Origin: a virus
Lineage: Duplodnaviria > Caudoviricetes
Direction: 5' to 3' (one strand)
DNA length: 64,000 nt
Virus record (IMG/VR): IMGVR_UViG_3300010885_080481
This document shows, one piece after another, positions 45,595 through 53,987 of the stretch. The position numbers and the translations under genes were made by a program. How positions within the stretch are numbered: position 1 is the first letter of the stretch; each line of letters opens with the position of its first letter. The notes under the pieces were generated by a model that searched no databases, was not told the origin of the DNA, and saw nothing but the letters and a program-made list of their open reading frames with translations.

Positions 45595-46986
45595 ATGGCT
45601 TTAGTCGGTAACATATCAGGTAGCGTTCAATCAAATTCTGTTGTAGCTTTGTCGGGATCGCTGATAGTAGCGAATCGTCCCGATGCTCTTTTCCCCGGGA
45701 TGCCGGGTGCTGATACAACGTTCTTTGTCTCCGGAGCGATAGGCTCCGTCGACAAGAGCGTGTTTGGTGGCGACGTTGTTGTCAGCGGCTCTTTCACGAG
45801 CAAGAACGGTATGCTCGTCATAGGCGACGCCATGGAGATGACAGGTACGCTTACTGTCACAAGCGACGTGTCTGTCGGTGGAAGCCTCTTCGTCTCCGGT
45901 AACATGGTCGTCGGCGGAACAACCACAACAATTGATACCGTCAACCTTGAGGTCCGCGACGCAGTCGTCGGTCTAGGATTCTCCTCCGGAACAATCGCCG
46001 TGAGCGCAGGCGACCGCGGCTGGATTGGTGGACTCGTTGGAACTGACAACGCAGTCTTCAAGTGGTCAAATGCCGAGAGCGAGTTCGTCGTCGGTCGCAC
46101 AACTTCCTCCGCGACAGGTTCTCTCCCGGTCGTTCTCTCCTCGGTCTCCGGATTCCGAGCCGGCAATATCCAAGGTTCAATCGTCTCCGCTTCCCTTGGT
46201 TTCTCAGGCTCTCACACCACGCTGCTCGATGGCACCTCGGCATTCATCGCAGGCACCGGAATCACGATCACCTCTTCTTCCAACGGTCCGATCTACATCT
46301 CTGCGCCCGGAGGAGGAATAGGTCCAACCGGTGACACTGGTCCACAAGGTCCAACCGGTGACACTGGTCCACAAGGTCCGACTGGCGATACAGGACCACA
46401 AGGTCCGACTGGTGATACAGGACCGCTCGGTCCGACGGGTGACACTGGTCCACAAGGTCCGACTGGCGATACAGGACCACAAGGTCCCACGGGTGACACT
46501 GGTCCACAAGGTCCGACTGGCGATACAGGACCACAAGGTCCGACTGGCGATACAGGACCACAAGGTCCGACTGGTGATACAGGACCGCTCGGTCCGACTG
46601 GTGATACAGGACCACAAGGTCCGACTGGTGATACAGGACCGCTCGGTCCGACTGGTGATACAGGACCAGGAATCACGGTTTCAAACCCGCTTGACAACCG
46701 CATCTTAACCTCCGATGGAACTTCCTACGGAGCAAACGCGGAATCCAACCTCACCTTTGATGGGACTCTCATGACCCTCACGGGCTCAATGGAACCCGGC
46801 GATGACATCACCTACAACCTTGGTGCCCCTGGTAAACGCTGGGCCAACGTGTACACCGGCGACTTGCACCTCCGCAACGATCGCGGAGACTGGACCGTGG
46901 TCGAGGAGGAAGAGATGCTCACCGTTCGCAACAATAAGTCGGGTAAATGGTACCAGTTCGTGATGACTGAGATCAAGAAGTCTTGA
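45595..46986 (+). CDS. Collagen-like tail-fibre protein
   Basis: N-terminal module shared with 49388, 39 Gly-X-Y triplets, C-terminal domain shared with 44577. Confidence 0.85.
46321..46671 (+). repeat. 13 x 27-bp tandem repeat encoding GPTGDTGP(Q/L/G)
   Basis: Units read directly: Q,Q,Q,L,Q,Q,Q,Q,Q,L,Q,L,G; several are identical at DNA level. Confidence 0.97.
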
Positions 46987-46994
46987 TAATCTAT

Positions 46995-47038
46995 CGGCCC
47001 GTTGCGGTTCACCCCTCCCGACTACAGCGGGCCGTTTT
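46995..47038 (+). terminator. Candidate intrinsic terminator hairpin
   Basis: CGGCCCGTTG ... CAGCGGGCCG (10 bp, one G.U pair, 20-nt loop) followed by TTTT, just after the 46986 stop. Confidence 0.55.
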
Positions 47039-47081
47039 ACGTGTTCCTAAACTATCAAAAAATTTGTAGTAGAATCGGTGT

Positions 47082-51712: not shown

Positions 51713-51730
51713 GAAATTCGGAGGAAAATC

Positions 51731-52981
51731 ATGTCGCATCTAATATCAACGCCGCCTTTCTTCGGAAGGGTAATCCAAGTCGACGCCATCAACGGCAACG
51801 ACTCGACCGGAAAGAGGGGACGGTCTCCCTTCAAGACCATCAACGCCGCGGTCTCGGCCTCGACGTCAGGAGACACGATCTGGGTGTCGCCCGGCACTTA
51901 TGAATTGACCTCTCCCATCACACTGACGAACGGAACTGCCCTCCGCGGCATGAGTCTACAGACGACCCTGATACAGATGACCAACGTGACAGGGGACACG
52001 ACTCTTCTGACGATGGGAGAAAACTGTCGCGTGGAGGACGTGACTCTGACGTTGACGTCCACCGGACACCACACCCTCGTCGGAGTCGACTTCCCAGGTA
52101 CATCTTCAGTCACGTCGAAACTCCGACCGACAGTCGTCACGGTCGACAACTCCTCTGCGTCGACGGGCGGGTCCTCGAACGTCTACGGCGTCCTGTGCTC
52201 AGGGACAGGTTCGCTGGGGACTGGTAACTTCTCGTTCAACTCCCTGAAGGGTATTACGGTCAATGTCCGCTCGGCGGGAGGCGGCAATAAGCGGGGGATC
52301 TACGTCACCGGAGCCGGGGCAATAACCACTCGTGACTTCAACCTGTACGTGACGGGATCTGCCGCAGGAGGCGGGTCGTTCGTCGGGGTCGAGACCGTCA
52401 ATCCCGCGGGACAGGTTCAGCTCAGATCCTCTACAGTATACGGCATGACGTCCGACATTAAGCAGAGCTCAGGGTCGATCGAGTTGGGACCAGGAACCGA
52501 CCTCGTCAACAAGACAGCGGGTGGAAAAAACTTCACTACTTATGTGTATCCCACCACAATCTTCTACGGCTGCATAGGATCGCTTAGTTCGTCATACGAT
52601 CCGGTGGTCGCTAACTACACGGCGTACCTCACACCGGGTGCCGGAACTGTACAGGCTGCAGCTACATCTCCGAGAGTAATCCACAGATTTCCTGACAAAG
52701 ATATCAACTTCTATTCGTCCCAACAGAAGGCGATCTGCTTCGGGTTGTTTGTCTCTGCTTCTATGGGTCCAGGCGCACCCGGGAACGTAACAAAAGTTGT
52801 GGTAATGAAAAATCGTGTTGACACACTTCTTACAGGAAGTTTGACCGGCAGCATGTTAGACGCAAGAAATTACAGCATATCCACCGACTTCAACCAATTC
52901 GACCTCCTGTCACTCAGGTTGGAATACACGGGATCGACGAACACAACCCATGACCTTTTCTGTCAGGTCGACATGTACTAA
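51731..52981 (+). CDS. Right-handed beta-helix (pectate-lyase-like) fibre/tailspike protein
   Basis: VDAINGNDS...PFKTINAAV...GDTIWVSPGTY (DUF1565-like start), then beta-helix-like Thr/Gly/Val-rich repeats; GGAGG SD. Confidence 0.65.
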   Translation: MSHLISTPPFFGRVIQVDAINGNDSTGKRGRSPFKTINAAVSASTSGDTIWVSPGTYELTSPITLTNGTALRGMSLQTTLIQMTNVTGDTTLLTMGENCRVEDVTLTLTSTGHHTLVGVDFPGTSSVTSKLRPTVVTVDNSSASTGGSSNVYGVLCSGTGSLGTGNFSFNSLKGITVNVRSAGGGNKRGIYVTGAGAITTRDFNLYVTGSAAGGGSFVGVETVNPAGQVQLRSSTVYGMTSDIKQSSGSIELGPGTDLVNKTAGGKNFTTYVYPTTIFYGCIGSLSSSYDPVVANYTAYLTPGAGTVQAAATSPRVIHRFPDKDINFYSSQQKAICFGLFVSASMGPGAPGNVTKVVVMKNRVDTLLTGSLTGSMLDARNYSISTDFNQFDLLSLRLEYTGSTNTTHDLFCQVDMY

Positions 52982-53018
52982 TTCGTCACATTTTGTAACG
53001 TCGCTGAAAGGTTAGATT

Positions 53019-53987
53019 ATGCCTGTTAAATTTAGAAGAGTTGGAATAACCAATAACATTTATAATTCTGGATTTCCGGTTGGGAGACCAGCACTTGGTC
53101 CTGCTGGGCCGCAAGGAGAAACAGGACTAGCTGGTCCGACCGGACCTACCGGTCCAACAGGTCCGACCGGATCTGTTGGTCCAACTGGTACAGCTGGTTC
53201 CGCTGGTCCGCAAGGACCGACTGGGCCATCAGGATCGACTGGGTCGCAAGGTGATAAAGGCGAAACAGGAGCCGCTGGCGATCGAGGAGAGACAGGGCCG
53301 ACAGGACCTGCTGGTTCGACAGGTCCTCAGGGTGACAGAGGCGACAATGGTGCTACGGGAGCAACCGGTGATAGAGGAGAAGCAGGACCGACAGGCCCGT
53401 CTGGGTCTACAGGACCTCAAGGTGACAGAGGCGACAATGGTGCTACAGGCGATCAAGGTCCCACAGGCGCCGCAGGGCCGACTGGTCCGACAGGACCTCA
53501 AGGTAATCGTGGCGATAACGGCGCGACGGGTGCCACGGGTGCCACGGGCGCCACGGGTGATCGCGGCGAAGTAGGCGCTACAGGGGCGACTGGCCCTACG
53601 GGGACAGCCGTCGGAAGTTTCTTGTTTTACTTTGGTGCTACAAGCATAAGCATTGATGCAACGAGATACTTGTATCCGGGAAGCTCCACTTCTGCAGCAT
53701 CATCTACCATCGTCCAAATTCCTATGCCAATAAGAGGTAATATCACTAAAATGTACCTTGCTCAATTAGCTGGTTCAGGAACTCGATCTATTGATTATAA
53801 ACTTTACGTAAATGGATCTGCATCAGGCATGGGCGTATCAACAACCACTAGTGGCACCGACGCAAATACCACAGACTCTATCTCGATATCCTTAGGCGAT
53901 AAAATTGCCGTGGCATCAGTACCAGCTGCAGGGACGGGCACAACTCCATCTAATATAATGATAGTAGTAGTTCTTGAGCCTACGTGA
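53019..53987 (+). CDS. Collagen-like protein with C-terminal beta-sandwich (BclA-like architecture)
   Basis: 26-aa N-terminus, 57 uninterrupted Gly-X-Y triplets, ~125-aa beta-rich C-terminus. Confidence 0.85.
53097..53609 (+). repeat. Collagen Gly-X-Y tract (57 triplets) with an internal ~90-bp duplication
   Basis: GDRGE(T/A)GPTGP(A/S)[15 protein letters not shown] occurs twice with a 30-aa period. Confidence 0.95.

Follow-up and report, generated by a model that had tools for sequence, protein, structure and literature searches.

A candidate phage system for O-glycosylation of collagen-like fibres: a glycosyltransferase-methyltransferase-TPR fusion gene among threonine-rich collagen genes

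A fusion enzyme gene flanked by threonine-rich collagen genes

The virus record IMGVR_UViG_3300010885_080481 (Caudoviricetes), whose whole stretch of 64,000 nucleotides (nt) is referred to here as the window, derives from a large tailed phage (myophage) from freshwater metagenomes, and contains at 44,577-53,987 six co-oriented open reading frames (ORFs), all on the (+) strand. One of these encodes a fusion of two glycosyltransferase domains, a methyltransferase and a tetratricopeptide repeat (TPR) region, and it is flanked by two threonine (Thr)-rich collagen-like genes and other fibre genes inside a single island of high G+C content. The analysis presented below indicates that this enzyme probably glycosylates the collagen-like fibres of the phage that encodes it. 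The genes, designated A to E around the enzyme gene, are the following.

44577..45545, (+): fibre gene A, 322 amino acids (aa), outside the G+C island, with PHROG tail spike and tail fibre matches
45595..46986, (+): collagen-like fibre gene B, 463 aa, with an N-terminal domain, a collagen stalk and a C-terminal fibre domain (Pfam Collagen, PHROG tail-fibre families)
46312..46671, (+): collagen repeat of gene B, proposed acceptor sites, 40 G-X-Y triplets, 26 with Thr at Y
47082..49343, (+): fusion enzyme, 753 aa, predicted soluble; GT-A, O-methyltransferase, GT2 and TPR domains
49388..51712, (+): fibre gene C, 774 aa (YadA_head, E 5e-13; phrog_25468, E 3e-80)
51731..52981, (+): gene D, 416 aa (Pfam PF12708 and DUF1565; PHROG baseplate and tail-fibre families)
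53019..53987, (+): collagen-like gene E, second proposed acceptor, 322 aa (Pfam Collagen), triplets at nt 53097-53609

The cassette genes are separated by gaps of 18-95 nt, and the G+C content over genes B to E (~45,600-53,700) is 0.50-0.62, compared with 0.35-0.44 on either side, in agreement with an earlier note on this DNA that had described a single high-GC block. Scans for promoters and terminators between 44.0 and 55.5 kb gave counts no higher than those in shuffled sequence, so that the case for co-transcription of the cassette comes from the short intergenic gaps only.

The stalk of gene B is a single uninterrupted run of 40 G-X-Y triplets (aa 240-359), of which 26 have Pro in the X position and 26 have Thr in the Y position, and its DNA has a period of 27 nt ([10 protein letters not shown] unit), while gene E contains 57 triplets (aa 27-197), 27 of them with Thr at Y. 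The Thr-at-Y fractions are therefore 0.65 and 0.47, respectively, and both stalks display the dominance of G-P-T triplets that is typical of BclA. Pfam Collagen (PF01391) matches gene B with E 1.9e-16 and gene E with E 1.4e-27. The Thr counts given for both collagens in the earlier note are thus reproduced; the total for gene B is 40 triplets and not the 39 stated there.

Gene B can be regarded as a genuine virion fibre because its C-terminal 104 aa match the C-terminus of the structurally solved fibre gp28 of cyanophage P-SCSP1u (PDB 8i4m, E 1.7e-6). The N-terminal ~70 aa of genes B and C are common to the two (45595-45800 and 49388-49590), and a C-terminal domain is likewise common to genes A and B (45300-45545 and 46780-46986), where it ends in a '...[13 protein letters not shown]..' motif that matches the C-terminus of gp28. 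This sharing of domains suggests interchangeable attachment and tip modules. The C-terminal domain of BclA type that had been proposed for gene E is not supported: Pfam gave no match to BclA_C (PF18573, C1q-like) in gene B or gene E at E values up to 0.01, the 125-aa C-terminal domain of gene E matched neither a PDB sequence nor a Pfam family, and the Atlas leads obtained for it, which include a BclA_C-bearing cluster at 0.77, are weak and below threshold, and no assignment is drawn from them. An exosporium-targeting N-terminus is likewise not detectable in genes B and E.

Among the remaining fibre genes, gene C contains about 28 'SHAEG' repeats of the YadA-head type and 27% Ser+Thr, and gene D, whose N-terminus is a pectate-lyase-like beta-helix according to Pfam, is likely to be part of a tailspike or depolymerase-type fibre. 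The Ser+Thr content of fibres A, C and D is 24-27%.

Domain structure and fold of the enzyme

Four domains can be delineated in the fusion enzyme.

47082..47696, (+): N-terminal GT-A-fold domain (aa 1-205), proposed glycan-extending transferase, from a structure model and Foldseek
47736..48149, (+): class I methyltransferase domain dependent on S-adenosylmethionine (SAM); Methyltransf_24, E 2.8e-19, with a weaker Methyltransf_3 match
48291..48800, (+): GT2 catalytic domain, proposed protein-priming transferase; Pfam GT2, E 6.4e-13; phrog_13126; modelled with high confidence
48801..49340, (+): TPR-like helical domain packed on GT2, proposed substrate-binding part; Pfam TPR families, helices at module residues 175-350

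The ORF starts with GTG at a position that is Met in a 91%-identical relative, and the Pfam matches within it are Methyltransf_24 (aa 236-353), Glycos_transf_2 (aa 411-501) and TPR (~aa 600-750). Its first 215 aa are unscored by Pfam. A structural model of this region, built on a shallow alignment (predicted local distance difference test score, pLDDT, 79), shows a GT-A fold, for which Foldseek returned RmlT, the Leptospira glycosyltransferase 6p61, ppGalNAc-T2 and SpsA (E 6e-8 to 3e-6), and a sequence 'AND(V/M/I)EF', conserved in seven homologues, lies at the DxD position. Because the part missed by Pfam folds as GT-A, the description of the protein in the earlier note as a GT2-methyltransferase-GT2-TPR fusion holds. 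The central domain has weak PDB sequence matches to SAM-dependent O-methyltransferases. No hydrophobic or membrane segment was found in the fusion (maximum Kyte-Doolittle score 1.0), which is accordingly predicted to be a soluble protein.

The GT2-TPR part of the protein (aa 400-753), hereafter termed the module, is its constant part. In 56 homologues of 41-79% identity, the motifs DTGSTD (aa 436-441), LDLDE (aa 485-489, containing the DxD) and HPCHE (aa 537-541) are invariant together with about 50 other positions, and the catalytic-type motifs of the module are, as judged from its sequence, intact. The module matches phrog_13126 (E 4.9e-101; profile positions 1-357 of 394, protein aa 404-752), a family of phage proteins whose name, 'beta-1,4-glycosyltransferase', is an annotation only. 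In the model (pLDDT 96), a GT-A fold is followed by the TPR helices, and the best PDB matches that extend across both parts are SunS and ThuS (template modelling score 0.65, E 6e-16), with isolated TPR proteins and GT-A enzymes next; the nearest models of reviewed UniProt entries are an uncharacterised Synechococcus TPR protein and, again, SunS. A weak sequence match to GmaR, the flagellin O-GlcNAc transferase of Listeria, was also found (E 1.5e-4). Compared with the cut-off of 350 bits for the NCBIfam SunS family model TIGR04195, the module scores 21.1 bits, and it is thus a structural relative of the SunS family and not a member. SunS, ThuS and GmaR, the nearest matches to the module, all act on proteins or peptides. 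A prediction of the complex between the module and a 65-aa collagen segment of gene B gave a score of 0.01 with a pLDDT of 29 for the collagen partner, a result that speaks neither for nor against binding.

Linkage of the module to Thr-rich collagen genes in phages

Scanning IMG/VR with the module gave at least 589 confirmed loci, of which the best 80 (0.99 Mb) were screened for collagen-like ORFs, defined by at least 12 G-X-Y triplets in runs of six or more. Here, as in the bacterial scan below, the loci are the 80 best-scoring ones and not a random sample, and clusters were treated as independent. A collagen-like ORF is present in 55 of the 80 loci, in 38 of the 43 loci with a length of at least 12 kb, and in all 25 loci with at least 5 kb of upstream and 2 kb of downstream sequence, and 11 of these have it directly next to the enzyme gene, at a distance of 100 nt or less. 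When the modules are clustered at 80% identity, 25 of the 31 clusters are accompanied by a collagen gene, and the other six have less than 4 kb of upstream sequence. In comparison, a baseline of 119 stretches fetched by an arbitrary 14-mer (1.07 Mb) contained two with a collagen-like ORF and none with the module (Fisher p 7e-27 for collagen given module). The reverse test, in which stretches were picked solely by a (GPT)3 coding pattern, recovered the module in 15 of 120, versus 0 of the 119 random ones (p 4e-5). Co-occurrence of GT2-TPR genes with Thr-rich collagen genes, which the earlier note had named as a means of checking its proposal and the absence of which it would have taken as a refutation, is thus strongly positive.

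The position of the collagen gene is variable: it can lie upstream with a gap of 17-24 nt, downstream with an overlap of 9-60 nt, or 0.4-8 kb away. This variation between clusters, together with the occurrence of the enzyme in both free and fused forms, argues against a single inherited arrangement. In a control with an adaptor gene in one ~60-kb lineage, nearly all members carry the module: 13 have module and collagen, 5 the module only and 2 neither, numbers that are too small for a comparison.

The linkage is also specific for the composition of the stalk, as illustrated by a comparison with phage collagens at large, which were collected by a Thr-blind (GPX)4 pattern and analysed with the same detection rule as the module-linked set. 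The collagens adjoining the module (one per cluster, n=25) have a median Thr-at-Y fraction of 0.64 (range 0.38-0.91; 88% at or above 0.45), compared with a median of 0.20 for the general phage collagens (n=64; 12% at or above 0.45; Mann-Whitney p 9e-11), and genes B and E of the window fall in the Thr-rich, module-associated group. The objection that the enzyme merely sits in fibre cassettes is answered by this result, because the collagens linked to the module are specifically rich in Thr. A contingency analysis of the (GPX)4 loci was marginal: 2 of the 18 Thr-rich loci contain the module and none of the 57 Thr-poor ones does (p 0.055), so that the distribution of Thr-at-Y fractions is the stronger of the two comparisons.

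Counterparts in bacterial chromosomes

An equivalent scan of bacterial genomes returned at least 573 confirmed loci, and the best 80 belong mostly to spore-forming Bacillota (Oscillospiraceae, Lachnospiraceae, Clostridium, Brevibacillus, Desulforamulus), with a few phage-sized contigs in metagenome-assembled genomes among them. Identities of these homologues to the module are mostly 40-45% and reach 54%. A collagen-like gene, mostly Thr-rich, is found in 46 of the 80 loci, and in 33 the distance between it and the enzyme gene is at most 300 nt, with the collagen gene in most cases directly upstream in the same orientation. This pairing of collagen and GT2-TPR genes is the arrangement published for sgtA and bclA3 of Clostridioides difficile, and the Bacillota pairs are probably exosporium-type glycoprotein systems like BclA3/SgtA. 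At the one locus inspected gene by gene, a Pseudoflavonifractor pair, the neighbours encode a Na/H exchanger, an acyltransferase, an ABC-type protein and an aromatic amino acid lyase, which identifies an ordinary chromosome and not a prophage. Some of the collagens in the bacterial loci (L498-L577; for example L523 6585-11089 and L563 7007-11083) are extreme in composition, with Thr at Y in as many as 206 of 220 triplets. The linkage between module and collagen gene, in phages and bacteria alike, is strong, Thr-specific and independent of arrangement.

The module family and exchange of the cassette

Homologues of the full-length fusion occur in related phages at 91%, 73% and 67% identity. The 91% and 73% relatives share the order fibre, Thr-rich collagen, fusion, large Ser/Thr-rich fibre, and the fibre bodies and the genes beyond them differ. 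A block of 4.4 kb (window 45324-49752; 8218-12652 of contig L002) is shared, at 87.6% identity, with a 281-kb metagenomic contig whose other fibre bodies are different; it spans the tail of gene A, collagen gene B, the enzyme gene and the head of gene C. The ends of the block lie inside fibre genes A and C and thus mark recombination joints within conserved fibre-end domains, from which it follows that collagen and enzyme stay linked when fibre modules undergo their typical mosaic exchange. Genes 45595-53987 are accordingly regarded as a horizontally exchanged fibre cassette. What comes after the cassette differs between the two: on the metagenomic contig it is a set of opposite-strand genes, eIF-1a-like, Cpn60 and UvdE. 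A DNA-level search found no cultured phage with DNA nearly identical to the window.

The module itself is ~55-60% identical across hundreds of proteins. In some of these it stands alone (347-360 aa), and in others it is fused to partners that vary and include the GT-A type seen here, another GT-A type, several methyltransferase families, PF04488 and PF01755. Such a constant module with changing partners fits a primer enzyme with interchangeable extenders. An exhaustive HMMER search puts the size of the family at 904 cluster representatives (50% identity clusters) at E <=1e-30.

The association extends to a cultured phage, the Actinomycetia phage DSL-LC01, which belongs to the subfamily at or above roughly 40% identity and has Thr-rich collagens (Thr at Y in 22 of 34 and 26 of 42 triplets) in one operon with the module. 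Within the same operon, the collagen genes are separated from the GT2-TPR gene by one annotated as tryptophan halogenase (L408 10436-12007), and a UDP-galactopyranose mutase and a second glycosyltransferase are encoded nearby on the other strand. In a lineage of 50-60-kb phages with a free-standing GT2-TPR gene, a 2-oxoglutarate-Fe(II) oxygenase gene (PF13759; L008 6704-7309, L010 7031-7663, L011 837-1427) is located a few genes upstream, between the collagens and the enzyme, and could encode a hydroxylase acting on the same fibres.

Proposed role of the enzyme and alternative explanations

The proposal of the earlier note, that this phage glycosylates its own collagen fibres, is supported by the Thr-specific co-occurrence and by a fold and architecture of the protein- or peptide-glycosyltransferase type (SunS and ThuS, GmaR weakly, and SgtA by its published description). 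We consider it probable that the enzyme encoded at 47082-49343 acts on the collagen-like fibres as a glycosyltransferase within the cytoplasm of the host, either ahead of virion assembly or in the course of it; in the following scheme, we infer the acceptor, the order of steps, the identities of the sugars and the benefit to the phage. The GT2-TPR module would bind a nascent or unassembled collagen chain and transfer the first sugar from a nucleotide sugar to the hydroxyl group of a Y-position Thr (perhaps Ser) in the G-X-T triplets, as SgtA does on BclA3. A further sugar would then be added by the N-terminal GT-A domain, and the glycan would finally be O-methylated, and so capped, by the central SAM-dependent methyltransferase. 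Stability of the helix, shielding or host binding may be the benefit of such a glycan. This division of labour between priming and extending fits the pattern of constant module and variable partners, as well as the precedent of PBCV-1 A064R discussed below.

The same genome offers a candidate source of sugars, in agreement with the earlier observation of rml-type and other sugar pathways.

1..23766, (+): sugar-nucleotide and glycosyltransferase island (Pfam NTP_transferase, RmlD_sub_bind, epimerases, dehydratases, GT2, GT1/GT4, GT9, PfkB, carbamoyltransferase, Methyltransf_24)

This AT-rich island holds RmlA-, RmlB- and RmlD-like genes, a PfkB kinase, epimerases, a carbamoyltransferase and about a dozen glycosyltransferases, and it is possible that its 24 kb provide the donors, or a further elongation system, for the fibre glycan. 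Because the N-terminal domain of the fusion is closest to the rhamnosyltransferase RmlT and the window contains rml-type genes, a rhamnose-containing glycan is a reasonable guess, and no more than that.

Several observations weigh against this interpretation. Among the 43 bacterial loci with sufficient flanks, 16 lack a collagen gene at distances up to 10 kb, and most Thr-rich phage collagens have no module nearby, as the module occurs in 12.5% of the (GPT)3-selected stretches. Shared ancestry is allowed for in the co-occurrence counts, which derive from best-scoring loci, only by clustering at 80% identity, and linkage demonstrates a functional relation, not the identity of the acceptor protein. 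In the 67% relative (L007), the fusion stands directly before gp13 and no collagen gene is seen in the 1.4 kb of upstream sequence that exists. The N-terminal GT-A domain carries 'NDxE' and not a canonical DxD, and its model was built on seven sequences. Finally, in the more distant homologues of the jumbo phages PaBG, Afa-NA1 and those of Erwinia (30-37% identity), the gene lies between DNA ligase and prohead protease, and the collagens are short, poor in Thr (about 12-32%) and 15-40 kb from the enzyme gene. The link to collagen therefore seems confined to a subfamily at roughly 40% identity and above, and the acceptor in the jumbo-phage branch may be a different one. PaBG (L409), Afa-NA1 (L410) and Erwinia phB78 (L411) each have four of these short, Thr-poor collagen-like genes far from the module gene.

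The alternative that survives best is that other virion proteins, such as fibre C, fibre A or components of the capsid or tail, are the targets of the enzyme instead of or besides the collagens, which would then be mere frequent neighbours. It is compatible with glycosylation of the collagens and does not exclude it. The high Ser+Thr content of fibres A, C and D in the same cassette, the large Ser/Thr-rich fibres that follow the enzyme gene in the relatives L001-L006, the position of the jumbo-phage homologue among head genes with no Thr-rich collagen nearby, and the acceptance of Ser by SgtA (PMC7157674) all agree with it. Residence in a fibre cassette would not, however, by itself predict the enrichment in Thr of the adjoining collagens (0.64 versus 0.20), nor would it explain an adjacency that is found in both gene orders in phages and recurs in bacterial chromosomes where phage fibres are absent, and we regard this alternative as unlikely.

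Modification of the host envelope (lipopolysaccharide, LPS, teichoic acid or capsule), leading to a block of superinfection or a change of serotype, is the usual reading in the literature, in which papers on aquatic phages, namely pelagimyophages and freshwater actinophages, take such genes for modifiers of DNA or of the host surface and propose envelope modification or DNA protection (PMC7029224, PMC10202952). GT2 enzymes often act on envelope glycans, and some of the GT-A structural matches are the wall teichoic acid enzymes RmlT, TarP and TarS. The fusion, however, is predicted to be soluble with no membrane segment, the best structural matches of its module are peptide glycosyltransferases with the same TPR arrangement, and an envelope substrate gives no reason for a linkage to Thr-rich collagens in unrelated phages and bacteria, so that this role appears quite improbable for the present enzyme.

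More improbable still is a function mainly as an assembly chaperone or scaffold for the collagen-like fibres, with a transferase activity that is secondary or lost. TPR domains are indeed protein-binding units, phage fibres frequently depend on a dedicated chaperone from a neighbouring gene, and an enzyme and a chaperone would look alike by genomic linkage alone; against this, DTGSTD, DxD and the other residues of catalytic-site type are invariant in the 56 homologues, and the fusions add further enzymes, not chaperone domains. Glycosylation of hydroxymethylated bases in phage DNA, a common role of phage glycosyltransferases, is least probable of all for a gene that lies among late structural genes and encodes a module with a TPR domain and a linkage to collagen genes, and no similarity to BGT, AGT or related DNA glycosyltransferase families was detected in any Pfam, PHROG, sequence or structure search of the fusion.

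Other features of the window

Among the other genes of the window, according to PHROG and Pfam, are those for a T4-type baseplate wedge protein, neck proteins similar to gp13 and gp15, and the tail sheath; a late sigma factor gene is present at 24060. An endolysin-like gene with two PHROG endolysin stretches (54445-55233) directly follows the G+C island and precedes the gp13-like neck gene. Two consecutive genes at 58922-62026 and 62079-63998 both match tail-sheath PHROGs, and the first is unusually long (1034 aa).

Novelty and implications

In full-text searches, we found no paper that ties the collagen-like fibres of tailed phages to glycosylation or to a dedicated glycosyltransferase. The remark in the earlier note that no described phage example was known agrees with these searches for the collagen fibres of tailed phages and does not extend to self-glycosylation of virions, which is known from mycobacteriophages, PBCV-1 and mimivirus (L230), just as the chemistry is known from SgtA/BclA3 and BclA.

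If the proposal is correct, tailed phages in freshwater, soil and gut viromes would commonly glycosylate their receptor-binding fibres with their own enzymes, and the annotation of glycosyltransferases in the host-recognition regions of phages would change. A non-protein layer would be added to the determination of host range and to the recognition of phages by antibodies and host defences, the stabilisation of Thr-rich collagen stalks that are free of hydroxyproline would be explained, and one enzyme-substrate pair would link phage fibres to the exosporium hairs of spore formers. The fusion would also provide a compact, soluble primer, extender and methyl-capper on one chain for the production of glycosylated recombinant collagens.

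It is possible, though we would not go so far as to call it probable, that the SgtA-like GT2-TPR module is the core of a widespread, unrecognised phage system that decorates collagen-like fibres with lineage-specific O-glycans, diversified by interchangeable partners. Host range, fibre stability or evasion of host defences would then vary with the glycan coat as well as with the protein tip, and many glycosyltransferases of aquatic phages described as 'LPS-modifying' or 'DNA-protecting' would actually be fibre glycosylation enzymes.

Comparison with known glycosylation systems

Phage-encoded glycosyltransferases that O-glycosylate the phage's own proteins have been described in mycobacteriophages, where they reportedly modify C-terminal stretches of the capsid and tail-tube subunits, and not collagen repeats (Freeman et al. 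2023, as cited in PMC12619734). Glycosylation of virus-encoded collagen-like proteins by a viral enzyme is known from mimivirus L230 (PMC9614988), which differs from the present system in that it hydroxylates Lys and glucosylates the resulting hydroxylysine, an animal-type chemistry, with a GLT25D1-like glycosyltransferase that has neither a TPR domain nor a Thr acceptor.

The combination of predicted activities on one chain recalls that of A064R from the chlorovirus PBCV-1, a soluble viral protein with two glycosyltransferase domains and a SAM methyltransferase, which builds and methyl-caps the end of a glycan on the virus's own structural protein (PMC9614988). Three transferase-type domains are present in the fusion as well; their order differs from the GT-GT-MT (two glycosyltransferases, then methyltransferase) of A064R. 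The latter lacks the additional TPR domain, comes from a eukaryotic virus and lengthens an N-glycan of the major capsid protein, with no part in priming. No sequence relationship between the two was detected, homology not having been specifically examined, and the resemblance is one of logic only. Small separate Methyltransf_24 genes, which occur beside the fusion in L007 (826-1401) and in the sugar island of the window (16893-17531), recall A061L, the second methyltransferase that completes the PBCV-1 glycan.

BclA of Bacillus anthracis and B. cereus has a stalk dominated by G-P-T triplets, the Thr residues of which carry O-glycans with rhamnose and methylated sugars. The phage collagens share the G-P-T-rich stalk, and a methyltransferase domain and rml-type genes are encoded in the window, whereas neither a BclA_C domain nor an exosporium-targeting N-terminus was detected in genes B and E.

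SunS and ThuS (PDB 7msn, 7msk), the best structural matches to the whole module, act on a ribosomal peptide and not on a lipid or glycan. Their identity to the module is 15-19%, and SunS modifies Cys in a small bacteriocin precursor, no gene for which was noticed here.

Finally, SgtA is a soluble, Mn-dependent enzyme of 358 aa with a GT-A domain at residues 1-260 and a TPR domain at 262-358, whose gene adjoins bclA3 and which in vitro adds beta-O-GlcNAc to Thr, or to Ser when substituted, in peptides of the GPT region (PMC7157674). It is compared here with the module by its published description. In the phage system the SgtA-type arrangement recurs: a GT-A (GT2) domain with nucleotide-binding and DxD motifs is followed directly by a C-terminal TPR domain within a module of ~350 aa, and the stand-alone phage homologues, at 347-360 aa, are of the same size as SgtA. 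The DxD conserved in the phage module has its parallel in the metal dependence of SgtA, and in both systems the gene adjoins a G-P-T-rich (G-X-Thr-rich) collagen-like gene. The two differ in that the module of the freshwater phage forms the C-terminal end of a larger protein that also contains a second GT-A domain and a methyltransferase, and in that its acceptor would be a virion fibre in place of the spore-surface protein modified by SgtA. By architecture, size and gene context, the module may thus be placed with the SgtA-type collagen O-glycosyltransferases.

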